A DNA stretch of 64,000 nucleotides, from NCBI GenBank assembly GCA_964408775.1, contig CAYPAP010000001.1, positions 89,524 to 153,523 of the forward strand, read 5' to 3'. The stretch is from an uncultured Gammaproteobacteria bacterium. GTDB taxonomy: Bacteria; Patescibacteriota; Patescibacteriia; Patescibacteriales; UBA12465. A program made the position numbers and the translations under genes. Shown here in pieces: positions 8,420-47,580 of the stretch (the first letter of the stretch is position 1; each line of letters starts with the position of its first letter). The notes under the pieces are model-generated. The model saw only the letters and a program-made list of their open reading frames with translations. It did not search any database and had not been told where the DNA came from.

Positions 8420-9625
8420 TTATTTTTGCACTCCTTGCTTAGAAATGTTTAATAAAACTCCACAAGAAGCTAGCAAAATCAAAAGTGATGTTCCGCCGGC
8501 ACTAACAAAAGGAAGAGGAACCCCCGTCATTGGAATAAGGTTTATCATTCCACCAATATTTAAAAAGGCCTGAAAAAATATCCACACTGATATACCCACT
8601 GCCAGAGCTCGTCCATACATATCAGGGGCTCTTTTGGCAATAATTATACCTTTATAGAATATAAAAAAATAAACAAAAATCAATAAGACCGAACCAATAA
8701 AGCCAATTTCCTCAGCAATTACCGGAAAAATTGAATCAGACCAAACTTCTGGCAAGTAATTGAATTTTTGTCGACTATCACCCAAACCCCGACCAAAAAT
8801 TCCACCTGAACCAATAGCGATTAATGATTGATTAACCTGATAACAGGAATCTCGGTCAAAATCGGGGTTTTGCAGACACCTAATTCTATTTAATTGATAA
8901 TCTTTTATAATCCCAGATGACTCTGGTCGCTCGGCTTGATTTAAAAGATAAACTAATCCCATAACTAAAATTAGAGATAGGATTAAGATTTGTTTCATAT
9001 TACCCTCGGCTACAAAATAAATAGATAAGGCAATTAAAAAAACTAAAATAAAAGTTCCTAAGTCAGGTTGCATTAAAAGCAATCCTCCAATAAAAGCTAG
9101 TACAACCAAAAAAGGCAATAAACCGGCAGAAAATTGTTTCAAATCATCTTTTCTAATCTCCACCCATGCAGCCAAATAAAAAATCAAAAAAAGTTTTACC
9201 GCCTCGGCCGGCTGGAAAGATTTACCAAAAACAATTATCCAACTATAAGAGGTCCCATGCTCACCTCTTAGTCCAGGAACAAAAACCAAGATCAAGAGAA
9301 CAAGTGACCCCAACAAAAACCAAAGTGAATATTTTTTGAAAAAATGGTAATCAATTTTGGAGAACAAAAATAAAAGGGCCAGGCCAATAAAAAGCGCCAA
9401 AAACTGTTTTTTAATATAGTAATAAGCATCGCCAGTACTAGAATGAGCTGTAACCAAAGAAGCGCTAAATAAAGCGACCAACCCAAAAGCAACTAGGGCC
9501 AGAATTACCCCCAGCAAATATTTATCCAGTGGTCTTCGAATAATACCAACCTTCTCCTTGCTAGAGCTGGAATTGTTCATTGGTCTGGAAATATTCTTTT
9601 TTTTATTCTTTGCTCTTTTAAACAT
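8420..9625 (-). CDS. ftsW: SEDS-family lipid II flippase/peptidoglycan polymerase (FtsW/RodA)
   Basis: 401 aa polytopic membrane protein with a conserved C-terminus ...LIPMTGVPLPFVSAGGTSLL. Its position between mraY and murG favours FtsW. Confidence 0.85.
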   Translation of the reverse strand: MFKRAKNKKKNISRPMNNSSSSKEKVGIIRRPLDKYLLGVILALVAFGLVALFSASLVTAHSSTGDAYYYIKKQFLALFIGLALLFLFSKIDYHFFKKYSLWFLLGSLVLLILVFVPGLRGEHGTSYSWIIVFGKSFQPAEAVKLFLIFYLAAWVEIRKDDLKQFSAGLLPFLVVLAFIGGLLLMQPDLGTFILVFLIALSIYFVAEGNMKQILILSLILVMGLVYLLNQAERPESSGIIKDYQLNRIRCLQNPDFDRDSCYQVNQSLIAIGSGGIFGRGLGDSRQKFNYLPEVWSDSIFPVIAEEIGFIGSVLLIFVYFFIFYKGIIIAKRAPDMYGRALAVGISVWIFFQAFLNIGGMINLIPMTGVPLPFVSAGGTSLLILLASCGVLLNISKQGVQK

Positions 9626-9636
9626 AAAAATTAAGA

Positions 9637-10686
9637 TTACCCTAAAGTCTTGTCAGCTAAAAATATTAAAAGTCCGATAACAGCTACCACCGCTGAGACA
9701 AGCCAAAAACGCATCACAATTTTACTCTCTGACCAACCTTGAGCTTGAAAATGATGATGGATAGGGGCTGACAAAAAAACCTTTTTCTTTCTAATTTTTC
9801 TAGATAATATTTGAATTATAACCGACAAAGATTCCACCACAAAAATAAACCCTATTAGAGGCAAAAGCATAACATTGTTAGTAAGTAACGCGATTATTCC
9901 CAGGGTAACACCTAAGCTCATCGAACCGGTATCCCCCATATAAAAACGGGCTGGAGGGATATTAAACCATAAAAAGGCCAACAAAGCCCCAATTATAACA
10001 CCACAAAAGGCGGCGAGATCATAGCGCCCCATAGCAAAAGAAATAATAGCATAAGAACCAAATGCAATAAGTAATGTTCCCCCCGCCAAGCCATCCAAGC
10101 CATCAGTTTCGTTAACTGAGAAAGAAGTAGCCACAATAACTAGAATAAAAACCGGAATATACCACCAACCAATTTGAAAATACCCCAAGAAAGGTACATG
10201 AATAGTGGTCCAATCTAATTTAAAATAAAACCACAAAGCTCCAATAAGGGCAATAAGAGCATAAATAATTAAACGATGTCTCATTTTGAAACCGCCACCA
10301 CCAAAAACCCCCTTACCTCGAACGTCCAACCAATCATCCACTAAGCCAATTAAGGCCGAGGCCACCAAAGCCCCTAACGGCAATAGAGTTTCTTTTTGTG
10401 ATAAAAAATTTAAAGTAGAGGTGAAATTATTAGGGAAAAATTTATATAAATAATAAAAAAACAAAACGAAAACAAAAGTTGTGCCCCAGATTAAAACCCC
10501 ACCCATAGTTGGAGTACCAGATTTATGAGCATGTAATTTACTGAAAATAGGAGTATCACCGGAATTCCTAATTTTTTTTCCAAGCTTGTATTTATATAAG
10601 AAATTAGACAAAAGAGGTATCCACAAAATAGTAAAAACAAAAGCTAATGTTGTTAAAAACAAAATTTTAATAATCTGTAATTCCAT
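9637..10686 (-). CDS. mraY: phospho-N-acetylmuramoyl-pentapeptide transferase
   Basis: 349 aa. Motifs GTPTMGG, NETDGLDGLA and the HHHF segment. Confidence 0.9.
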   Translation of the reverse strand: MELQIIKILFLTTLAFVFTILWIPLLSNFLYKYKLGKKIRNSGDTPIFSKLHAHKSGTPTMGGVLIWGTTFVFVLFFYYLYKFFPNNFTSTLNFLSQKETLLPLGALVASALIGLVDDWLDVRGKGVFGGGGFKMRHRLIIYALIALIGALWFYFKLDWTTIHVPFLGYFQIGWWYIPVFILVIVATSFSVNETDGLDGLAGGTLLIAFGSYAIISFAMGRYDLAAFCGVIIGALLAFLWFNIPPARFYMGDTGSMSLGVTLGIIALLTNNVMLLPLIGFIFVVESLSVIIQILSRKIRKKKVFLSAPIHHHFQAQGWSESKIVMRFWLVSAVVAVIGLLIFLADKTLG

Positions 10687-16016: not shown

Positions 16017-18041
16017 TTAAAATTTAAAGTAAAAAATCATGACCTTAGAGTTATTCACACTGTAGACTAGGTCAGCCTCTACTCTAGCCTCTTCTGCGAT
16101 TTTAGTAAAGCCCCACCAATAATCATTAACCACAAAGTAAGCCCCCTCAGCTCCGACCTCAGTCATTAGCCCTAACATCAATTCCCTACTAGGTTCCTCA
16201 ATCATCTTCAAATAATAGTCATATAATAATCCTCCGGTCTGAACGGAATAATAAAGCCAAGGACCATAATACCTTTTAAAGCCATATTCTTTAATAGCAC
16301 TAGCTCCCACCTGTTGATTGGCTAAGACAATATAATTATCATTCTCCTTAACACTCTCGATAAAGCGCACGGCCGAAAAATCAGAAGAAGAAACCGAAAA
16401 AGCGCGAGAATTAAAATGATTATCTTTGCGCGGATAATTTAAATACAGTGAAACCAAAAGTAAGGCCGACAAAAATATTAAAATAATAATTTTAAAAAAT
16501 ATTTTTTCTGATTTTACTTTTTTTATTAAGCAAATAAAAATTTCATAAAAAACTGGAAGCAAGAACAAGAATGATAATATTAAAATTCTACCAGCATAAC
16601 TTCCTTTGTCTATTTGACTTAAAAATGGGAAGTCTATAAACAAACTTAATAAATATGAAAGCATTAGAGCTAGAGAATTAAAATAAAAAATTTTTAATTC
16701 CTTGAGACGGTATTTAAGAATAAAAATTGTAGCTAATAAAAATAAAATTAATAGCCACCAATTTTTATTGAGACCAAAAAAATAAATAAAGTTTAAAATG
16801 ACGCTTTCCTGCCCGACTAACCTAGGAGCCCAATTAGATAAATTGATATTAGAAATAGAAAATCGGCCACCAGAAAATATTAGAAGTATTGGTAGTATTA
16901 TAATTTGACCTAAATAAGCTAAGTATTTTAAAGCATTTAGCAACTTATAATTAAATTTCAAGCTCCACTTCCCTGTTTTCAGCAAACTTCCATTATTTTT
17001 AATGTTGCTAATAAACAAAATAAAGGTAAAAATAATTGCTGGCACTCCGGCCAAGGGATGAATAAAAAATACTGATAAGGCCAGCGAGAATAAAAAGAAG
17101 AAATTAAATCTCTGAATAATAAAATTTTTATTAAAAGAAAAAATTAATAAAATAATTAAAAACAAAAAGGCTAAGTTTTGCGGAACGGTGTAAGTAAAGA
17201 TTGAAAATGGTAAAATTAGAAATAATAATAAAGGCCAAATAGTTTTATGAAATCCTCGTTTTTTAAAATTAAAAATAAAGGTCAAGGGAATTAATACGGC
17301 TGATAAAAATGGGACTAGCAATTTATCCAAGGTCTCCAAAGAAAAGGGCCAAATTTTTAAAATAAATAATTCCAAAGTATATTGACCGAGATAGTAAATA
17401 GTTTTGGGCTCCATAACTCCAAATTTCAAGATATCAGCCAAGGCACGTTGATGAAGTAATTGATCATAACCAAAAGCAATTTTATAGACAAAAAAGGAAA
17501 TAGAAAAAAATAAAAAATATATCATGGTCATAAATAAATACGACCACTTACTTTTGAAATAAAAATCTACAAATAAAGCTACTAATAAAAACCAAAGAAA
17601 AATCCAGAAATAATTGGGTAAAAATTGCCAAGGTGATGCAATGGCCGAGAGACTTCCGGATCTAAATAGTATTTGAAATAGGATGAAAAATAATGTTAGG
17701 GTTATTAGGGGTAAAATTATCTTCAAGAATAGCCCAAATAATTTACTGCTAATCCTGGATTCCAGTTCTCGCTCTATGCCTGCCTTAGCCACGGAGTGGC
17801 GTGGGGGGAAAAATGACGAGGACGAAGAAAGCACACCTTGTTGATTGCCCCCAGAAATGCTAAAATATATTAAGATATAAGTTAAAAATAACGACAAAAT
17901 TAAGGTAATTACTACCCCCAAGTCATTAAATTTGTAAAAATAATACCAAATAGAGCCGATATTAATAATCAGCGACAAAAACAATAGAAAAATTAAGAGG
18001 AAATTTTTTCTAAAATAATTTAAAAAAGTATTAAAACTCAT
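16017..18041 (-). CDS. large polytopic membrane protein with a C-terminal soluble domain (possible GT-C-type glycosyltransferase/polymerase)
   Basis: 674 aa with more than 12 hydrophobic segments, divergent from a GT4 gene. The function is inferred from context only. Confidence 0.4.
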   Translation of the reverse strand: MSFNTFLNYFRKNFLLIFLLFLSLIINIGSIWYYFYKFNDLGVVITLILSLFLTYILIYFSISGGNQQGVLSSSSSFFPPRHSVAKAGIERELESRISSKLFGLFLKIILPLITLTLFFILFQILFRSGSLSAIASPWQFLPNYFWIFLWFLLVALFVDFYFKSKWSYLFMTMIYFLFFSISFFVYKIAFGYDQLLHQRALADILKFGVMEPKTIYYLGQYTLELFILKIWPFSLETLDKLLVPFLSAVLIPLTFIFNFKKRGFHKTIWPLLLFLILPFSIFTYTVPQNLAFLFLIILLIFSFNKNFIIQRFNFFFLFSLALSVFFIHPLAGVPAIIFTFILFISNIKNNGSLLKTGKWSLKFNYKLLNALKYLAYLGQIIILPILLIFSGGRFSISNINLSNWAPRLVGQESVILNFIYFFGLNKNWWLLILFLLATIFILKYRLKELKIFYFNSLALMLSYLLSLFIDFPFLSQIDKGSYAGRILILSFLFLLPVFYEIFICLIKKVKSEKIFFKIIILIFLSALLLVSLYLNYPRKDNHFNSRAFSVSSSDFSAVRFIESVKENDNYIVLANQQVGASAIKEYGFKRYYGPWLYYSVQTGGLLYDYYLKMIEEPSRELMLGLMTEVGAEGAYFVVNDYWWGFTKIAEEARVEADLVYSVNNSKVMIFYFKF

Positions 18042-18070: not shown

Positions 18071-19171
18071 ATGAAAATTGCCCAAGTGGTCTGTGTCTAT
18101 CCGCCCTATGCTGGAGGAATTGGCACCTCAGCCCTAAAACTACAAAAAACTTTATCAGCCCAACACGACACTCATGTTTTCACAATTAGAGACAAAAACG
18201 GAATAACCGAAGATGACGAAAAAAATAATATAATTAGATTAAAACCATTCCTTAAATTAGGTCATGGGGCGATTTTGTGTTCTCTATTAAAAAAATTAAA
18301 GAGCTTTGATGTTGTTTATTTCCACTACCCTTTTTTTGGAACTGGAATAATAATCTGGCTATTTAAAACTCTATACCCTAAGAAAAAACTAATAATTCAT
18401 TATCACATGGATGTTCGTCATAAAAATATTTTATTTAAGATATTAAGCTGGCCCGAAGAAATTATTAAGAAATCATTATTCAAAAAAAGTGAAATCATTG
18501 TTAGTGCTTCGTTGGATTATATAAAACATAGCCAAATAAAAAATATTTATAAAAAATACCCAGATAAATTTAGGGAGATTCCTTTTTCAGTTGACACCAA
18601 CGAATTCAAACCGCTGGAAATGGATAAAAAAGAAAATATAATATTGTTTGTTGGGGGGTTAGACAAGGCTCATTACTTTAAAGGGGTTGATGTTTTAATT
18701 AGAGCGATAAGCGAAATAAAAAATATTGAGCTAGAATTAAGAATTATTGGTGAAGGTGAATTAAAAAATGAATTTAAAAATTTAAGCCGAGATTTAGGTG
18801 TTGAAAACAAAGTTAAATTTCTAGGTCGACCAGACAGAGAAAGCTTTATAAAAAACTTTCAACAAGCCAAGACTCTAGTTTTGCCATCAATCAATAGCAA
18901 TGAAGCTTTTGGCATAGTCTTAATAGAGGCTATGGCTTGCGGAACGCCAGTAATCGCCTCTGATTTACCAGGAGTTAGAACTGTTTTTGAAAATGAAAAA
19001 TCGGGATTATTAGTAGAACCAAAAAATGTTGAGGATTTGAAAAATAAAATTGAGTTAATTTTGCAGAATGAAGAAAAGCAAAAAAACATGAGCCAGGAGG
19101 CCTATAAACTAGCACAAGCAAGATATACGGAAGAAATAATTAACACAAAGACATTAGGCTTGTTTAATTAG
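18071..19171 (+). CDS. family-4 (GT-B) glycosyltransferase
   Basis: 366 aa. ...NEAFGIVLIEAMACGTPVIASDLPGVRTV (the EX7E region). Confidence 0.85.
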   Translation: MKIAQVVCVYPPYAGGIGTSALKLQKTLSAQHDTHVFTIRDKNGITEDDEKNNIIRLKPFLKLGHGAILCSLLKKLKSFDVVYFHYPFFGTGIIIWLFKTLYPKKKLIIHYHMDVRHKNILFKILSWPEEIIKKSLFKKSEIIVSASLDYIKHSQIKNIYKKYPDKFREIPFSVDTNEFKPLEMDKKENIILFVGGLDKAHYFKGVDVLIRAISEIKNIELELRIIGEGELKNEFKNLSRDLGVENKVKFLGRPDRESFIKNFQQAKTLVLPSINSNEAFGIVLIEAMACGTPVIASDLPGVRTVFENEKSGLLVEPKNVEDLKNKIELILQNEEKQKNMSQEAYKLAQARYTEEIINTKTLGLFN

Positions 19172-19214
19172 CATAAACCCTGTTGTGCCTCCGTCTTTGC
19201 TGAAACCTCTATCT

Positions 19215-19545
19215 GTGTCACCCCCGGCGACCCACGTTAGTTTTCTGAGGTGCGTAGCACGAAGAAAACTTTTACGTGGGGAGGAAAGGGGGACCAGGGT
19301 TGGTCCACATAAATAATAATGCTTATAAAATGACCAAAGAGCACAATTATTATATTTATATATTATTAAATAAAATTAGTATAAAAAAATAATCTCATTT
19401 AAAGAAATGAGCTTAGAGGCATTAATTAATAACCGAATATTTATCGGTTTAACCCTGGACCCCCTTCCCTCTCGCGTATAGCCATTTTTATAAACATTAC
19501 TTCGTAATATTTATAAAAATGCCACGCGATCGCCGGGGGTGACAC
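19215..19545 (+). other. 331-nt nested inverted-repeat element (predicted four-way junction): cis-regulatory RNA or MITE-like element
   Basis: P1 is GTGTCACCCCCGGCGA (19215-30) paired with TCGCCGGGGGTGACAC (19530-45), 16/16. Hairpin 19231-19280 has stems 7+7+4 bp. P2 pairs 19281-19301 with 19451-19471, 19/21. Hairpin 19472-19529 has stems 5+12+5 bp. All four helices abut with no spacer nucleotides. The downstream ATG is at 19546. Confidence 0.6.
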
Positions 19546-20628
19546 ATGAGAAATAAAATTATGAAAATAGGAATTATCAACAACTTATACAAACCCTACA
19601 ACAAGGGCGGGGCCGAAAAGGTTTGCGAAAGAATTATAGCTGAACTAGAAAAAAACGGTCACTCTTGTTTTATTATCACCACTAAACCAAGAGATAAAAC
19701 TGAAATAAATCATGAACCTAAAACATATTATCTTAACTCCGAATATTATAATCTAGGACAAAAACAACTTCTCCATCGCTTTTTCTGGCAAATTGGAAAT
19801 ATTTTTAATTTTGCTAAAGGTAAGAAATTAAAAAAAATACTACAATTAGAAAAACCAGATTTAATTATCTCTAATAACTTAATGGGTATAGGACTGAAAA
19901 CTTTTAAAATTATTAAGAGATTAAATATCAAACATACCCACGTCCTGCACGACATCCAGCTAATTCATCCCTCTGGCTTAATGATTTTTGGGAAAGAAAA
20001 AATTATTAATACCCTACCAGCTAAAATCTATCAAAACATTAGTCGTAAGTTTTCTGGCTCACCGGAAAAAGTGGTTTCCCCTTCTAATTGGCTATTACAA
20101 GAACATCTTAAAAAAGGATTTTTCAAAAATAGTGAAAAAATAATTCAAGCTAATCCTCAACCATTTGAAGAAAAAAAAGAAATTATCAGGGACAAAGACA
20201 AAGAAATAAAATATTTTTTATTTATCGGTCAACTCGAAGAACATAAGGGTATTATTTTTCTAATTGAAACTTTTAAAAAAATAGAAAACACTAAAATTAA
20301 TTTAAAAATTATTGGCGATGGAAAATTAATGGATAAAATAAAATTAATGAGCCAAGATGATAATCGTATCAAAATCCTGGGACCAAAAAATAAGGAAGAA
20401 GTAGCCGAAGAATTAACCCGGACTGATTGCCTGGTAGTTCCCTCTCTTTGCTACGAAAATTCTCCGACTGTAATTTATGAAGCTAAGCATTTTAATTTAC
20501 CTATTATTGCCTCTAATTTAGGCGGAATCCCGGAGTTAATTAGCCAAGAATATGAGAGGTTGTTTGAAGCCGGAAATCAAGCTGATCTGATTAACAAGAT
20601 TAATGGTTTTATAGAAAACAAGAAGTAA
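19546..20628 (+). CDS. family-4 (GT-B) glycosyltransferase
   Basis: 360 aa. ...CYENSPTVIYEAKHFNLPIIASNLGGIPELI. Confidence 0.8.
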   Translation: MRNKIMKIGIINNLYKPYNKGGAEKVCERIIAELEKNGHSCFIITTKPRDKTEINHEPKTYYLNSEYYNLGQKQLLHRFFWQIGNIFNFAKGKKLKKILQLEKPDLIISNNLMGIGLKTFKIIKRLNIKHTHVLHDIQLIHPSGLMIFGKEKIINTLPAKIYQNISRKFSGSPEKVVSPSNWLLQEHLKKGFFKNSEKIIQANPQPFEEKKEIIRDKDKEIKYFLFIGQLEEHKGIIFLIETFKKIENTKINLKIIGDGKLMDKIKLMSQDDNRIKILGPKNKEEVAEELTRTDCLVVPSLCYENSPTVIYEAKHFNLPIIASNLGGIPELISQEYERLFEAGNQADLINKINGFIENKK

Positions 20629-26052: not shown

Positions 26053-26123
26053 TGTGTCACCCCTCCACCTTCGTCGCGTAAAATGGCCCTGCCATCACGC
26101 GACTACAGCAGGCACAGCAGCGA
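26053..26123. repeat. GC-rich intergenic patch sharing motifs with the other GC-rich elements
   Basis: tgtgtcacccctcc resembles the left arm of the 19215 element, TGTGTCACCCCC. A TCGCG-tg-ATGGC-cct-GCCAT-ca-CGCGA hairpin lies at 26074-26102. The TCGCGTAAAA motif is also seen at 5745-5754 (complement), 11893-11901 and 62954-62963. Confidence 0.45.
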
Positions 26124-26145
26124 GCAAAAAGGCTGGAACCCAGCC
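26124..26145 (-). terminator. intrinsic terminator after rfbC
   Basis: Minus strand reads GGCTGG-GTT-CCAGCC followed by TTTTT. The stem ends 7 nt after the rfbC stop. Confidence 0.6.
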
Positions 26146-26152
26146 CTCCCTT

Positions 26153-26605
26153 TTACTTTATCATATAAGGAGAATCTTTGTCCTCTTCCCAGCGAATTTC
26201 GTCGATTTCTTCATTTTTACCCTCACCTTTATATAATTTATCTGGGAAATTTAAACAATATGAGTCTCCTGGCCCTAAAGCCTTATAGCCATGAACTACT
26301 CCTGGTGGAACGATAACTAAAGTTGGCCCCCCTTCTCCGGCTTCTAGGGTTAAATATTCGTCCTTGGTTTCGCTATCTTCTCGTCTATCCCAAAGATGAA
26401 GGGCAAATTTTCCTGGACCAACGAAAACAAAACAATCGCTTTGATTCTTGTGTTCATGGGGACCACGAACTATACCTGGTTTAGTAACGCTAATATAAGC
26501 CATTTCTGGTTTGTAATCTAGCTCGTCGGAGCGGTAAATCTCGCTTAGCCAGCCTCGTTCGTCGTAATATTGGTCTAATTTTTTAATAATTAAGCCGTTT
26601 ATCAT
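26153..26605 (-). CDS. rfbC: dTDP-4-dehydrorhamnose 3,5-epimerase-like cupin (short form)
   Basis: 150 aa. DERGWLSEIYR...GIVRGPHEH...VVHGY; rfb context. Confidence 0.65.
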   Translation of the reverse strand: MINGLIIKKLDQYYDERGWLSEIYRSDELDYKPEMAYISVTKPGIVRGPHEHKNQSDCFVFVGPGKFALHLWDRREDSETKDEYLTLEAGEGGPTLVIVPPGVVHGYKALGPGDSYCLNFPDKLYKGEGKNEEIDEIRWEEDKDSPYMIK

Positions 26606-31392: not shown

Positions 31393-32406
31393 TTATTTGG
31401 TAGCCAAAATACTTCTTTTATAGGAATCTAAATTATCCAAAGCAATGCCGGTACCCTTAGCCACGCACAGTAAAGGATCATCAGCCACATAAGTTGAGAC
31501 ACCGATAGCCTGAGAAAAAAGCTGATCGATATTTCTAAGCAAAGCAGTCCCCCCAGTTAAAACTATGCCCTTGTCAATAATGTCGGCTACTAACTCGGGT
31601 GGAGTTTGTTGAAGTATTTTTTTAGCTGTATTTAAAATTATTTCTAATTCTCCAGAAATGGCTGAGGTAACATCGTTGCTGTTAACCTCAATAGTTTTGG
31701 GCAAACCACTAACTCCGTCTCGTCCATTTATTTCCATAAATATTCTACTATCATCTTCTAAGAACATAGCTGAACCTACTTTTATTTTCATTTCCTCAGC
31801 CGTTCTTTCTCCAATAACTAAACCATACTTTTTGCGAACGTATTCCAAAATAGCTAGGTCTAATTTATTACCCCCAACTCGGACTGAAGTAGAGGAAACT
31901 ACTCCACCCAAAGAAATAACAGCCATCTCGGATGTTCCCCCACCAATATCAACCACCATATGCCCAGTAGCCGAACTAATGGGAATATTAGCACCAATAG
32001 CCGCAGCTACTGGCTCTTTGATAATATAGGCGGCCTTAGCTCCGGCAGCAATAGTAGCCTCAATAACAGCCCTTCTTTCAGTAGAAGAAATTCCAGCTGG
32101 AACGGCCACCATAACTTCTGGACGGAAAATTCTAACTTTTCCCAAGGTTTTATTAATAAAATAACGAATCATGGCCTCGGTAGTGCGATAATCAGCGATA
32201 ACCCCCTCCTTTAATGGTTTTAGGGCAATAATGGTGTCCGGAGTACGTCCTAGCATGTCTTTAGCCTCATTACCTACAGCTAAAACCTTATTATCATCAA
32301 TAGAAACAGCCACGACACTAGGTTCGTTGATAACCACACCTCTTTTAGGTAAATATACCAAAGTGTAGGTTGTACCCAAATCTATTCCGATTCTTTTAAC
32401 CATCAT
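31393..32406 (-). CDS. mreB: rod-shape-determining actin homologue MreB (copy 2)
   Basis: 337 aa. IGIDLGTTYTLVY...INEPSVVAV...VVDIGGGTSEMAVISLGG. Confidence 0.9.
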   Translation of the reverse strand: MMVKRIGIDLGTTYTLVYLPKRGVVINEPSVVAVSIDDNKVLAVGNEAKDMLGRTPDTIIALKPLKEGVIADYRTTEAMIRYFINKTLGKVRIFRPEVMVAVPAGISSTERRAVIEATIAAGAKAAYIIKEPVAAAIGANIPISSATGHMVVDIGGGTSEMAVISLGGVVSSTSVRVGGNKLDLAILEYVRKKYGLVIGERTAEEMKIKVGSAMFLEDDSRIFMEINGRDGVSGLPKTIEVNSNDVTSAISGELEIILNTAKKILQQTPPELVADIIDKGIVLTGGTALLRNIDQLFSQAIGVSTYVADDPLLCVAKGTGIALDNLDSYKRSILATK

Positions 32407-41207: not shown

Positions 41208-42254
41208 CTAGGAGCCATTTAGGGTTGAGGTTATTTTTTTGAGTAGATCTTCATCAGAAAATAAACTACCTGACCCCCTGACCATAGCTGATAATGGATC
41301 ATCAACCACTATCACTGGTATCTTTGTGGCCCGAGAAATTAATTTATCTAAACCATATAATAAGGCGCCTCCTCCACTCAAATATAAACCATGCTCGTAA
41401 ATATCAGACACTAGCTCTGGAGGAGTTTCTTCTAAAGTCAATTTAATATTTTCTACAATCTTAATAATTGTTTTTTTAATAGCATCCCTAATTTGATTAT
41501 CATTTATAGTGATGGCCGTTGGTAAACCATTTATTAGGTCTCGACCTCTAATTTCCATAGTTCTCTCCTCCTCGAAAGACATGACCGAAGCTAAATTTAT
41601 TTTAATTTTTTCAGCCAATTGTTCACCAATCAACAGGTTGAAATTATCCCTGATATAATCTGAAATATTGGTATCCAATTCATTTCCCGCTAAACGCAAA
41701 GACTTCCAAGAAACAACACCAGACAAAGAAATAACGGCAATATCAGTTGTTCCTCCGCCAATATCAACTATCATATTGGCCCTAGGGCTATCTACCGGGA
41801 GCCCAGCCCCTAAAGCAGCGGCCATAACCTCCTCTATTAAGTAAACTTTGCGAGCTCCAGCTGATTTAGCGGCATCTTCTACTGCTTTTTTTTCTACCTC
41901 AGTAATATCTAAGGGAATGCCGATAATAACCCGGGGTCTAGGTAAAAAAGAAAAACCCTCACCATGGACCTTGTTTATAAAATGTTTAAGCATTTTTTCA
42001 GTGATCTCGAAATCAGAAATAACACCATCAACTAAAGGTTTGACGGCCTGAATATGTGCTGGAGTTTTACCAACCATTTTCTTGGCCTCATGCCCAATTT
42101 CCAAAATTTCGGTTGTTTTAGTGTTAATAGCCACCACACTAGGCTCATTAATAATAATACCCTTTTTATCAACATAAACCAAGGTATTTTTAGTACCCAA
42201 ATCAATAGCAATATCATGTCCCAGACTACCAAATTTTTTAAAAATGTTAAACAT
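41208..42254 (-). CDS. mreB: rod-shape-determining actin homologue MreB (copy 1)
   Basis: 348 aa. IAIDLGTKNTLVY...INEPSVVAI...IVDIGGGTTDIAVISLSG. Confidence 0.9.
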   Translation of the reverse strand: MFNIFKKFGSLGHDIAIDLGTKNTLVYVDKKGIIINEPSVVAINTKTTEILEIGHEAKKMVGKTPAHIQAVKPLVDGVISDFEITEKMLKHFINKVHGEGFSFLPRPRVIIGIPLDITEVEKKAVEDAAKSAGARKVYLIEEVMAAALGAGLPVDSPRANMIVDIGGGTTDIAVISLSGVVSWKSLRLAGNELDTNISDYIRDNFNLLIGEQLAEKIKINLASVMSFEEERTMEIRGRDLINGLPTAITINDNQIRDAIKKTIIKIVENIKLTLEETPPELVSDIYEHGLYLSGGGALLYGLDKLISRATKIPVIVVDDPLSAMVRGSGSLFSDEDLLKKITSTLNGS

Positions 42255-45012: not shown

Positions 45013-45026
45013 GCTATGGAAAAAAA

Positions 45027-45162
45027 TATTTTCGGACAAAAAGGAAATCATTGTCAGCATCGAAATGATTGTCAGGATTAGCCCAATTGTAGTTGAGATA
45101 ACGCTTGCCATTGTCATTGCGATTGACATTGAATACATGAGGATTGTCACTGGAGTCGCTTA
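45027..45162 (-). repeat. DGR template repeat (TR)
   Basis: A 136-bp direct repeat of 45479-45614 (offset 452). In the target frame it encodes SDSSDNPHVFNVNRNDNGKRYLNYNWANPDNHFDADNDFLFVRK and is rich in AAY codons. Confidence 0.85.
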
Positions 45163-45466: not shown

Positions 45467-45477
45467 ACCCTAAAAGA

Positions 45478-47580
45478 TTATTTGCGGACAAAAAGGAAAT
45501 CATTGTCAGCACCGAAATGACGGTCAGGATTAGCCCAAAAGTAGTGGAGATAACGCCCGCCATCGTCACTGCGATAGACATGGAATCCATGAGGATTGCC
45601 ACCGGAGTCGCGCATAGGGTTCATGGCTATAGCAATCCATTCGCCTTTAGGCTGGTCATAGCCCATTAATTTCTGGTAATTTAATCTCAGTAGTGGTCCT
45701 ACTTCTGGGGGACATAATTCTAGGTCCAATTCTTTGCCCTTAGCTATTATTTCTTGAAATTTAGCTCCATTGGGAAATCCTAAATCAGCCACCGATAGCT
45801 TTATTAATTTCAATTCTTTCTTTTCTGTACTTATCTTAAAATCTAGATGATTTAATAATTCTTTAGCTGTATCAGAAACTGTTATTTGATTAGGATTATT
45901 ATAGTCACTTATCTTTTTTCTTTCATTTAATTTTTCTTTAATTTGATTTTCGCTTAAATCACCAACCATCATATCTATCTTTCTAATTTCTTTTCCAGGA
46001 AATTTAGTATAGATATGTTCAATATTGTTGTTTAATACTTCCTGGCACAGTGGGCCAATATATACTTTAATATTATAGTTGTTTCTTAGATCTTCTTGGC
46101 TAGTGGCAATTTGATTAGGACTACAATTAAATAATATGGGTAAATCTTCTTTGATCTTTCTAACAGCTATGACCTCGTCTATCCTTTCGTCTCTTTGATA
46201 ACCAAATCCTTCAATTGGTCTATCTAGCTCATAGATAAATCTTAGTTCTTCTTCATTTAATTTATCTTCCTTTCTTTTCCAGATGTCGGTTAGTTTTTCC
46301 ATGTCTTTAATTCTTTGTTTATACAGCTCTCCTTCTTGACCAAAATCGCTCAGTTTTTCATTAAGCACGGGGTGAATATATGGATCTAGGTTCTGATCAT
46401 GGGCTATACCTCTAGGGGGTTCGGCTATTTTATTATTCCCTTCCATTCTAACAGCTAAACGAGGAATCTTGGCTTCACCCTCTTCGTTATTGGAATAATA
46501 GACATGAAAATCTCCACCTTGAAGTTGGTTTTTAGCAGTATCATAATTAGCAGTACACCATTCTAGAGGATAACCCTCAAAACTTTTGACTAGCCCATCG
46601 GGTTCGGAATATTGATCATACTTTACCCATTGTCCTTCAATATTTCTTAGTCCCTCAGTCGAATATTCTGGTATTTCTAGAAGAAATTGAGCATATAATT
46701 TAGAGAAGTTTTCGGTTGATAATAATTCAATAAATTCGTCCTTGTCTAATTTCTTGCTTTCATTGTCAATTTGTAGTTTTAATAAATCATCGTCTCTTTG
46801 GTCTCTTGGTTTTTGCTTTTCTTTTTTTACCCTACTTTTTTCTTCTAATAATGAACCCATGGCTGAAATAGTTTTAGCTAGAGCTCGGCTATTTAATAAT
46901 GGGAAGGAGTTGGTAGTACTTTCGGTTCTTTTCTGAAAACGAGCTTTTTCTAATATTTTTTCATCACTTATTTCTCTATTACAATTAGAACAAAAATTAT
47001 TCTTTTTATCTATGGGTTTCTCACAACCTGGGCAATGAGGAACCTTTTCATATTTACCCATTTTCAACATTGAATTGAAGGCCCAATATTTAGCCCACAT
47101 CGGATAGTCAGCGTCAGGAGAACTTAAATAGTCCACCCATCGATTTAGGCTATTTATCTGGTTAAATCTGATTACTTCTAATTCTTTTTCTTTCATGTCT
47201 TTGGGAAAAATATAGTTTATTTTCCCTTCCTCGGTTGTTTCTTTTTCTACTCCTTGGTTTTGTAGGTCTCCGCTATATCCTTGTCTTATCATTATATCGG
47301 CCTGATTATTCCAATATGATTGAGGGATATTATCCATTTCTATATTTACATACTTTTTTTGATAATAGTTTTTAATTCTCTCTATTACTCTGGGATCGTC
47401 TCTATGGCTTAGGTGGGTTTTCTCTAATATTTCGAGAAAATGAGAAATCTTCTCAGTTGGTTTCTGAGATATTTCTTCTCCTTTTCTTTTTCTTCTGTCT
47501 TGTTCGTGCTCTACCTCTTTGGAGATATGAAATTTAGGGTCCTTGCTGTGTAAAAATTCTAGTTCGATGTTTTTGCTCAT
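45478..47580 (-). CDS. DGR variable (target) protein, 700 aa
   Basis: Track ORF. Its last ~45 codons are the VR (...RDSGGNPHGFHVYRSDDGGRYLHYFWANPDRHFGADNDFLFVRK*). It contains HCPGCEKPIDKKNNFCSNCN (a zinc ribbon) and has no obvious signal peptide. Confidence 0.85.
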   Translation of the reverse strand: MSKNIELEFLHSKDPKFHISKEVEHEQDRRKRKGEEISQKPTEKISHFLEILEKTHLSHRDDPRVIERIKNYYQKKYVNIEMDNIPQSYWNNQADIMIRQGYSGDLQNQGVEKETTEEGKINYIFPKDMKEKELEVIRFNQINSLNRWVDYLSSPDADYPMWAKYWAFNSMLKMGKYEKVPHCPGCEKPIDKKNNFCSNCNREISDEKILEKARFQKRTESTTNSFPLLNSRALAKTISAMGSLLEEKSRVKKEKQKPRDQRDDDLLKLQIDNESKKLDKDEFIELLSTENFSKLYAQFLLEIPEYSTEGLRNIEGQWVKYDQYSEPDGLVKSFEGYPLEWCTANYDTAKNQLQGGDFHVYYSNNEEGEAKIPRLAVRMEGNNKIAEPPRGIAHDQNLDPYIHPVLNEKLSDFGQEGELYKQRIKDMEKLTDIWKRKEDKLNEEELRFIYELDRPIEGFGYQRDERIDEVIAVRKIKEDLPILFNCSPNQIATSQEDLRNNYNIKVYIGPLCQEVLNNNIEHIYTKFPGKEIRKIDMMVGDLSENQIKEKLNERKKISDYNNPNQITVSDTAKELLNHLDFKISTEKKELKLIKLSVADLGFPNGAKFQEIIAKGKELDLELCPPEVGPLLRLNYQKLMGYDQPKGEWIAIAMNPMRDSGGNPHGFHVYRSDDGGRYLHYFWANPDRHFGADNDFLFVRK
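45479..45614 (-). repeat. DGR variable repeat (VR)
   Basis: 118/136 identical to the TR. Of the 18 mismatches, 17 are at positions where the TR sense strand has A (plus-strand t). The 3'-terminal 27 bp (45485-45511, matching TR 45033-45059) are invariant despite containing four sense-strand adenines, which is IMH-like. Confidence 0.85.

Follow-up and report, generated by a model that had tools for sequence, protein, structure and literature searches.

A probable derivative of Ssn-linked hairpin repeats, folded as a four-way junction, between two glycosyltransferase genes of a Patescibacteria bacterium

A 64-kb stretch of DNA from a Patescibacteria (candidate phyla radiation, CPR) bacterium, called here the window (33% GC), was analysed around a palindromic element of 333 nt at positions 19214-19546. 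The element lies in the spacer between two genes encoding GT4-family glycosyltransferases, named here GT4a and GT4b, and contains no open reading frame (ORF). The surrounding gene order was kept in relatives (DEAD helicase, a membrane protein of 657-675 aa, GT4a, the spacer, GT4b and further genes up to HisRS and sugar-nucleotide enzymes), the locus being a cell-surface sugar cluster, and the best GT4b homologs carried the names Patescibacteria or Falkowbacteria. The element is probably a derivative, similar to a MITE (miniature inverted-repeat transposable element), of elements in which a gene for the single-stranded DNA (ssDNA) nuclease Ssn stands between hairpin repeats of the SRM type (SRM-ssn-SRM); it would have lost the gene and been orphaned in the GT4a-GT4b spacer. 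The features of the window are listed in Table 1.

Table 1. Parts of the element, flanking genes and further putative family members in the window.
Feature	Position	Strand	Description
P1 5' arm, left terminal inverted repeat	19214..19230	+	TGTGTCACCCCCGGCGA; 17/17 complementary to 19530-19546
Hairpin A	19231..19280	+	50 nt; 7-bp, 8-bp and 4-bp stems; 48% GC; variable arm
P2 5' arm	19281..19301	+	GAGGAAAGGGGGACCAGGGTT; partner on the - strand GAGGGAAGGGGGTCCAGGGTT, holding the exact family 16-mer GGGAAGGGGGTCCAGG
P2 loop	19302..19450	+	21% GC, AT-rich; small hairpins at 19390-19415 and 19431-19449; no ORF
P2 3' arm	19451..19471	+	AACCCTGGACCCCCTTCCCTC; 19/21 complementary to 19281-19301
Hairpin B	19472..19529	+	58 nt; TCGCGT/ACGCGA base and long AT-rich extension; 31% GC; variable arm
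P1 3' arm, right terminal inverted repeat	19530..19546	+	TCGCCGGGGGTGACACA; ends in the A of an ATG that is not conserved
GT4a, upstream flanking gene	18071..19171	+	366 aa, Glycos_transf_1; outside the element; syntenic in all relatives
GT4b, downstream flanking gene	19561..20628	+	Start probably at MKIGII..., 14 nt past the end of the element, judged from homolog lengths and starts
Probable decayed second family copy	17701..17817	+	117 nt, 39 codons, in-frame in the 674-aa membrane-protein gene 16017-18041(-), N-terminal variable loop
Possible relic of one end	26053..26125	-	GGGGTGACACA preceded by hairpin GTCGCGT...ACGCGAC; no P2-like arm

Structure of the element

An earlier note on this DNA had described a four-helix nested element between the two glycosyltransferase genes, and all of its helices were recovered in place: the closing stem P1, the internal stem P2 with its AT-rich core and two small hairpins, and the two side hairpins A and B, meeting in a four-way junction with zero unpaired nucleotides. 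The perfect pairing of P1, described there as 16/16, proved to be one pair longer (17/17, starting at 19214). On the + strand the two mismatches of P2 read A.C and A.A, which correspond to G.U and U.U when the - strand is read. The minimum free energy of the RNA fold was -141.6 kcal/mol for the + strand and -152.4 kcal/mol for the - strand, against about -72 and -78 in dinucleotide shuffles (z = -14.7 on each strand); z-scores with DNA parameters were -13.5 and -15.4, and the - strand folded slightly better than the + strand.

Within the window, the 17-mer that forms the ends was confined to the two termini of the element, with 0.02 matches expected by chance. The GC content was 62-71% in the arms and 21-48% in the loops, in a genome of 33% GC, which argues for a long residence with selection acting on the arms only. 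A promoter/terminator scan found no terminator in the GT4a-GT4b spacer, and promoter-like sites there were not above shuffle expectation.

A dispersed repeat family in Alphaproteobacteria

A scan with the 17-mer, covering one genome per species, returned 62 loci, mostly chance matches in high-GC coding DNA. About 25 of the 62 shared the whole plan of the element and came from Hyphomicrobiales, Beijerinckiaceae and other metagenome-assembled genomes (MAGs) of Alphaproteobacteria. The order within these units was GTGTCACCCCCGGCGA, a short hairpin, GGGAAGGGGGTCCAGG, a loop, GGGTTCCCTTCCCCTC, a short hairpin and GGCCGGGAATGACAC, the 3' side of P2 being written CCCTTCCCC between the loop and the second hairpin. 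The window element carried both family 16-mers, GTGTCACCCCCGGCGA and GGGAAGGGGGTCCAGG, exactly on its - strand, and about 40 Hyphomicrobiales units had an A-end identical to its P1 16-mer.

The units had the same four-way junction fold, were 106-153 nt long (typically about 118 nt) and often formed tandem arrays. In an alignment of 30 of them, 97.6% of the pair cells were standard pairs and P1 and P2 were nearly invariant; hairpins A and B showed compensatory changes in 5 pairs, and none of 500 shuffles reached the observed values. Between the two phyla the hairpins stood at the same positions with unrelated sequence (hairpin A measured 17 nt in Alphaproteobacteria). Family members occupied unrelated loci, with dozens of copies in Hyphomicrobiales, in either orientation with respect to their neighbours, and one copy was in-frame in a gene. 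Scans of viral contigs with both 16-mers gave chance matches in coding DNA only, and a plasmid collection gave no match at E<=1e-5.

Two candidate observations were discarded. A 23-nt match on the S. meliloti plasmid pSymA (E<=10) was not an element on inspection. An apparent strand preference of G.U pairs (76 vs. 8) came from a count that did not include two C.A positions in the internal loop of P1; these are G.T on the other strand, and with them the totals roughly balance.

A GIY-YIG nuclease gene linked to the family

Some family members were accompanied by a gene. In locus L024, an ORF starting right after the P2 arm encoded a 97-aa single-domain GIY-YIG protein, and GIY-YIG ORFs were found within a few hundred nt of units in L024, L043, L040, L007 and L011. 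As an independent test, loci were fetched by protein homology alone, regardless of repeats: in Microvirga subterranea (L122) units of 66.6, 56.2 and 38.3 bits surrounded the gene, and in Chelatococcus (L108-L110) units of 33-34 bits lay directly beside it. A fixed orientation of the units with respect to the gene, taken at first from L040 and L043, was abandoned, L122 showing that the orientation varies.

The linked proteins matched PF01541 only, and their nearest solved structures were UPF0213 proteins and SLX1. The Hyphomicrobiales proteins were 57-61% identical to P0240, a Burkholderiales homolog whose gene is inserted between sucC and sucD and has on either side an exact copy, CGTCATTCCCGCGCAGGCGGGAATCCAG, of NTS, the target repeat of Ssn. 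Ssn is a single-domain GIY-YIG nuclease of about 94 aa (cd10448) that binds a hairpin repeat in ssDNA and cuts just upstream of it, being inactive on double-stranded DNA and on RNA (Chenal et al. 2025, Nat Commun 16:2388, PMC11893778). The NTS repeat is CGTCATTCCCGCGMAVGCGGGAATCYRG, generalised in the same work to the degenerate SRM, HGTCWYN(0-2)YYVSBRHN(0-5)WNVSBRGN(0-2)RNCYNB; ssn genes are flanked by such repeats in four phyla, and the authors point to an arrangement like that of an insertion sequence (IS), repeat-gene-repeat, and to a parallel with repetitive extragenic palindromes (REP) and their RAYT proteins (PMC11893778). In N. meningitidis, NTS clusters around surface-protein genes, and cutting by SsnA lowers the integration of NTS-flanked DNA; Rickettsia is among the SRM-rich genera, and the main text of that paper makes no mention of Patescibacteria (PMC11893778).

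In L024 and L109 the ssn ORF was inside the P2 loop of a complete element, and L122 carried the same arms upstream of the gene and nested partial units after its stop codon. The order of the full-length element, as found in Hyphomicrobiales, was: P1 5' arm GTGTCA(C/T)CCCCGGCG; hairpin; P2 5' arm GGGAAGGGG..., resembling a Shine-Dalgarno sequence; ssn ORF (about 95 aa, GIY-YIG); P2 3' arm; hairpin; P1 3' arm. The purine-rich P2 5' arm was 0-20 nt upstream of the ssn start in L024 and L109, and in L122 it abutted an upstream ATG about 80 nt before the called start. The P2 loop of the window element, at the position where full-length relatives carry ssn, had no GIY-YIG similarity. Since ssn is found inside the P2 loop of these relatives, the units of about 118 nt and the window element may be read as what remained after loss of the ORF.

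Beside the full-length element of L024 (6300-6500), tandem modules of about 50 nt, each a GC hairpin followed by TCGCCGGGGGTGACAC, repeated one end of the element. In a Burkholderiales MAG (L114, 1964-2319, and also L115-L121), an ssn homolog with two perfect inverted NTS hairpins was located between sucC and sucD, and this looks like a clean insertion of a selfish element into a core operon.

Presence and absence of the element in related Patescibacteria

Orthologous spacers were taken from ten related loci. Eight relatives other than the window had a readable spacer or gene-proximal upstream sequence (counting L099 and L100 together), limited in L102, L104 and L106 to the last 22-62 nt upstream of GT4b, and the element was absent from six of the eight. 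The same full element was found in L101 (Logan SRR6924042; GT4b identity 87%), the contig of which starts inside hairpin A. L103 (72%) had an 84-nt spacer with the 3' half only, at 2925-2988: the P2 3' arm (GGACCCCCTTCCCTC), a homologous but diverged hairpin B and the P1 3' arm (TCACCGGGGGTGACAC). The stretch GGACCCCCTTCCC of the P2 3' arm was present in this half-copy and in units of L094 and L095. Among the six without the element, L096 (91%) had instead a DUF3750 gene on the opposite strand, L099/L100 (80%) a 107-nt spacer with an AT-rich hairpin, and L105 (65%) overlapping GT4a and GT4b genes; in L102, L104 and L106 (86%, 71% and 76%, respectively) the readable nucleotides matched the AT-rich spacer of the L099 type.

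The L101 copy differed from the window at 2 positions in 292 nt, one of the changes turning ATG 19546 into ATA. Between window 19255-19760 and L101 1-500, the element and the first ~500 nt of GT4b were ~100% identical, and identity fell to ~80% further downstream. As this profile indicates, the shared tract is the product of recent recombination, similar to co-conversion and ending inside GT4b. The earlier note had offered as one reading a cis-regulatory leader RNA, to be sought upstream of GT4 homologs; such conservation was not found, the element being missing from most relatives and its only other full copy belonging to the recombination tract.

The spacer of L096, the closest relative, harboured the DUF3750 gene at 9401-9889, and this spacer is an insertion hotspot. 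Short AT-rich hairpin repeats of a separate family, (G/C)(C/A)CACTTTTTT-N3-5-AAAAAAGTG.., were seen in several intergenic spacers of the Patescibacteria relatives (L099 5950-5995, 12180-12300 and 12600-12700; L096 16680-16720; upstream of GT4b in L102, L104 and L106), one of them immediately upstream of GT4b, at the site that the large element fills in the window. The distal part of hairpin B in the window (GCCATTTTTAT...ATAAAAATGCC) resembles these repeats.

Start of GT4b

The earlier note had taken ATG 19546, which abuts P1, as the start of the downstream gene and had suggested that the closing stem sequesters the start region. All GT4b homologs begin with MKI(G/A)II, corresponding to ATG 19561 in the window; because of this, and because the near-identical L101 copy has ATA at 19546-8, ATG 19546 is very probably not the GT4b start. 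The A-rich leader ATAAAATTATG lies outside P1 and was found in relatives whether or not they have the element, which leaves the regulatory reading unsupported. The structure, in which P1 ends at 19546, includes neither this conserved leader nor the true start codon, about 15 nt past the element. Most likely, the element has no dedicated role in GT4 expression; effects on the operon mRNA, where a highly stable fold would stand ~15 nt short of the start codon, or on local recombination would be incidental.

Other copies in the window

A clear family copy in the related locus L099 (4424-4544, corresponding to 2190-2310 in L100) scored 12.2 bits with R1, a covariance model built from the 30 alphaproteobacterial units, and had the alphaproteobacterial-type arms GGGGTTCCCTTCCCCTC and TCGGCCGGGAATGATAA. 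Window 17701-17817 aligned with it and is probably a decayed copy; L096 had a 54-nt deletion within the same site. The ‘related left end’ reported at 26053 in the earlier note stood as far as an exact 11-mer (0.1 expected by chance) beside a stem similar to TCGCGT/ACGCGA; it had no P2-like arm, the corresponding spacers of L096 and L099 did not contain it, and it can be regarded only as a possible relic.

The block at 26053-26150 (-) is GC-rich, intergenic and located downstream of the stop codon of gene 26153-26605. It comprises a hairpin resembling an intrinsic terminator, GGCTGGGTTCCAGCC, followed by TTTTT, then the GTCGCGT...ACGCGAC hairpin and then GGGGTGACACA.

Relationship to Ssn and its hairpin repeats

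Several features place the family close to the SRM/NTS system. The partner protein of the relatives is a single-domain GIY-YIG protein of about 95 aa, homologous to one encoded between perfect NTS hairpins, the layout is repeat-gene-repeat, and the family is multi-copy, mostly intergenic and present in more than one phylum. The outer arm starts like the 5' half of SRM, a GTCAY tag followed by a C-rich CCCGG stem: bases 19216-19228 of P1 (TGTCAC CCCCGGC) fit HGTCWY and YYVSBRH, and the fit is found at both ends, on both strands. The canonical SRM matches of Chelatococcus and the P1 arm have the same beginning, TGTCATCCCCGGCG, and the alphaproteobacterial B-type end, GTCATTCCCGG...CCGGGAAT, contains the dRS3 core ATTCCC/GGGAAT. 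The differences are that SRM is a simple hairpin of 20-50 nt, whereas the family forms a four-way junction of 118-333 nt in which the hairpin loop has become a three-helix insert; that the ends of the family are symmetric (GTGTCAC...GTGACAC), whereas NTS is directional; and that the window copy has no nearby ssn gene.

On these grounds, deletion of the ORF from a full-length element would have left the four-way unit, of ~118 nt in Hyphomicrobiales and 333 nt here. In the window copy, the three peripheral loops may then have grown and become AT-rich, toward the composition of the host. P1 and its GTCAY tag would be the counterpart of the hairpin and upstream tag that Ssn binds before cutting ssDNA just upstream, and the GC-rich junction-proximal arms are identical between phyla, likely because they are the part recognised in ssDNA. 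The Ssn recognising them as a module might be encoded in another part of the genome or might now be lost. The copy may have entered the GT4a-GT4b spacer in a single Patescibacteria lineage, where it now stands with no nuclease gene close by; its spread, like that of the four-way form in general, would have depended on Ssn. The MITE-like insertion that the earlier note gave as its other option is thus upheld in essence, the element being an ORF-less member of a dispersed inverted-repeat family with insertion polymorphism whose longer relatives carry a nuclease gene; the associated enzyme is a GIY-YIG protein and no classical transposase.

A bolder version of this proposal, possible though doubtful, is that the four-way units are a distinct kind of non-autonomous mobile DNA copied or moved by Ssn, similar to IS elements with MITE-like offspring, which crossed phyla into Patescibacteria with the invariant GC-rich junction as recognition module and there inserts in operons and also in-frame in genes. 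Ssn would then be the enzyme that mobilises the element, in addition to any part it has in modulating transformation.

The following results weigh against derivation from SRM-ssn-SRM elements. No match to the full SRM pattern was found on either strand of the element or of the four-way alphaproteobacterial units, with a search whose positive controls worked (perfect NTS in L114, SRMs in Chelatococcus L108/L109); the 3' stem of SRM is fitted by TCGCCGG, but 299 nt away, and its tail RNCYNB is not. Searches by tblastn and hmmsearch that covered the 64-kb window and ~67 kb from loci of related Patescibacteria found no GIY-YIG/ssn gene. Within the 64 kb there was one intact copy, in addition to the decayed in-frame copy and the possible relic. 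The window element escaped the R1 model, with filters switched off as well, an outcome probably due to the three long insertions that it carries; its place in the family is accordingly based on arms shared exactly and on the common architecture. A metagenome scan with GACCCCCTTCCC-N{40,70}-CGCCGGGGGTGACAC returned two loci of the high-GC alphaproteobacterial type and no AT-rich relatives. The near identity of window and L101 comes from a recent recombination tract and thus does not amount to independent conservation. The flanks, ...CTCTATC|TGTGTCAC...GTGACACA|TGAGAAAT, contain no direct repeat, in agreement with the earlier note, which had seen no clear target-site duplication. In the alphaproteobacterial copies no consistent duplication was found either, some flanks being complementary rather than direct.

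Alternative explanations

The element might be kept by the host for a function at the DNA level, in the manner of NTS: a genomic Ssn would cut beside it in ssDNA (transforming DNA, replication intermediates) and so modulate recombination or transformation around the surface-polysaccharide genes. Neisseria provides a precedent in the NTS clusters around surface-protein genes and the effect of SsnA on integration (PMC11893778), the locus is a cell-surface sugar cluster, and the tract shared with L101, ~100% identical over the element and ~500 nt of GT4b, indicates recombination right at the element. That tract was, however, followed only from inside the element, where the L101 contig starts; ssn was not found in the sequence searched, a single intact copy in 64 kb is not a cluster flanking genes on both sides, and most close relatives do without the element at this site, all of which makes such a function unlikely. 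An ordinary MITE, unrelated to Ssn and generated by deletion from a transposase-encoding IS that mobilises it through its 17-bp ends, would explain the small size (333 bp), the perfect 17-bp terminal inverted repeats, the lack of an ORF, the intergenic position, the presence or absence among relatives and the copies at unrelated sites (the GT4a-GT4b spacer in the window and L101, with a half in L103; another site in L099/L100). Nevertheless it is quite improbable: no target-site duplication is visible, searches of genomes, metagenomes, viral contigs and plasmids brought up no IS with these ends, the only gene in or beside family members is that of the GIY-YIG nuclease, and conservation of the internal P2 arms would be needless for a transposase reading the terminal repeats only.

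Function as RNA is less probable again. The four-way junction could act as a processed small RNA, or as an RNA that regulates the nuclease gene or is its partner, and the window copy would be a gene for such an RNA; both hairpins show compensatory changes and there are G.U pairs, and in L024 and L109 P2 would pair the Shine-Dalgarno-like arm with sequence after the stop codon, a plausible translational brake. This is very unlikely given that the wobbles favour one strand in P2 and the other in P1 (CC/AA loop), so that neither strand is clearly the RNA, that units occur in either orientation and in-frame in a gene, that Ssn acts on ssDNA and does not bind RNA (PMC11893778), and that pairing in the window copy is Watson-Crick almost throughout, the pattern to be expected for a DNA palindrome. 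Rfam, suggested as a check in the earlier note, returned only two tRNAs for the whole window at gathering scores, and nothing credible for the element region and the alphaproteobacterial units at E<=10. As for a cis-regulatory leader sequestering the ribosome-binding region or start of GT4b, the two genes run in the same direction with the element on their sense strand, and its end is 14 nt short of the real start, where a structure of ~-140 kcal/mol could hinder ribosome loading. It is nonetheless extremely unlikely: apart from the non-conserved ATG 19546 and the A-rich leader kept outside P1 in element-free relatives, most orthologous spacers lack the element and in L105 the genes overlap, the family occupies unrelated loci in another phylum, and the - strand is the one that folds better.

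Comparison with other repeats and significance

REP sequences and their paired form, REPIN, with RAYT proteins of the IS200/IS605 type, resemble the family in being non-autonomous palindromes found as singlets, inverted doublets and clusters, with a single-copy nuclease-type gene between repeats and a proposed recognition of ssDNA hairpins; the window element, with its two inverted A-type halves, relates to the half-copy of L103 as a REPIN does to a REP singlet. The family differs in its GIY-YIG nuclease in place of an HUH tyrosine transposase, in having no GTAG or CGTC tag and in being four-way instead of a single long hairpin. With MITEs such as Correia/NEMIS, ERIC and Nezha it shares small size, terminal inverted repeats, lack of ORFs, intergenic location, insertion polymorphism and strong predicted folding of transcripts, but it has no target-site duplication and no parent IS with a transposase, and internal arms are conserved besides the termini. 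CIR elements of Caulobacter and other alpha-proteobacteria are intergenic inverted-repeat elements of ~110 bp; compared by description only, they are similar to the 118-nt units in size and host class. The bcr1 repeat of the Bacillus cereus group (~155 bp, mobile) has a closing stem and two stem-loops in a ‘cruciform-like’ arrangement with compensatory changes (PMC3184786). The family likewise combines a closing stem, independent stem-loops and compensatory changes; bcr1 differs in its 5-bp direct repeats and in having no known nuclease partner. RPE, Rickettsia palindromes of ~100-150 bp, also occur in-frame in protein-coding genes (PMC10969869), to which the in-frame copy of 117 nt and 39 codons that L100 carries in its 675-aa membrane-protein gene, and that is decayed in the window, can be likened by description only, the main window copy being intergenic. 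Nothing was found in the literature on the core sequences, nor on GIY-YIG proteins linked with REP, RAYT or MITE.

The element is of a known kind, that of Ssn/SRM; what looks new is the expansion to a four-way form lacking the ORF, the occurrence in Patescibacteria and the in-frame copy. The description of Ssn nucleases and of the hairpin repeats that go with them dates only from 2025. To these the present analysis adds a probable ORF-less derivative in which the Ssn-type hairpin is expanded to a four-way junction, with junction arms identical between Hyphomicrobiales and a Patescibacteria genome and the rest drifted to host composition, and with the behaviour of mobile DNA: one spacer is occupied in some relatives and empty in others, and there are a half-copy, a copy in frame within a gene and arrays in tandem. 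The idea that Ssn elements are, or were, mobile becomes directly testable, and the arms supply defined ssDNA substrates for studies of specificity. For annotation, the case is a warning that a striking nested structure upstream of a gene may be a passenger repeat and not a riboswitch.

Further repeats in the window

Two other kinds of repetition were observed in the window. A 140-nt direct repeat (45020-45159 and 45472-45611) was 87% identical with a spacing of 452 nt, and two pairs of segments (31859-32385 and 41674-42206), ~73% identical and separated by about 9.8 kb, resembled paralogous genes.

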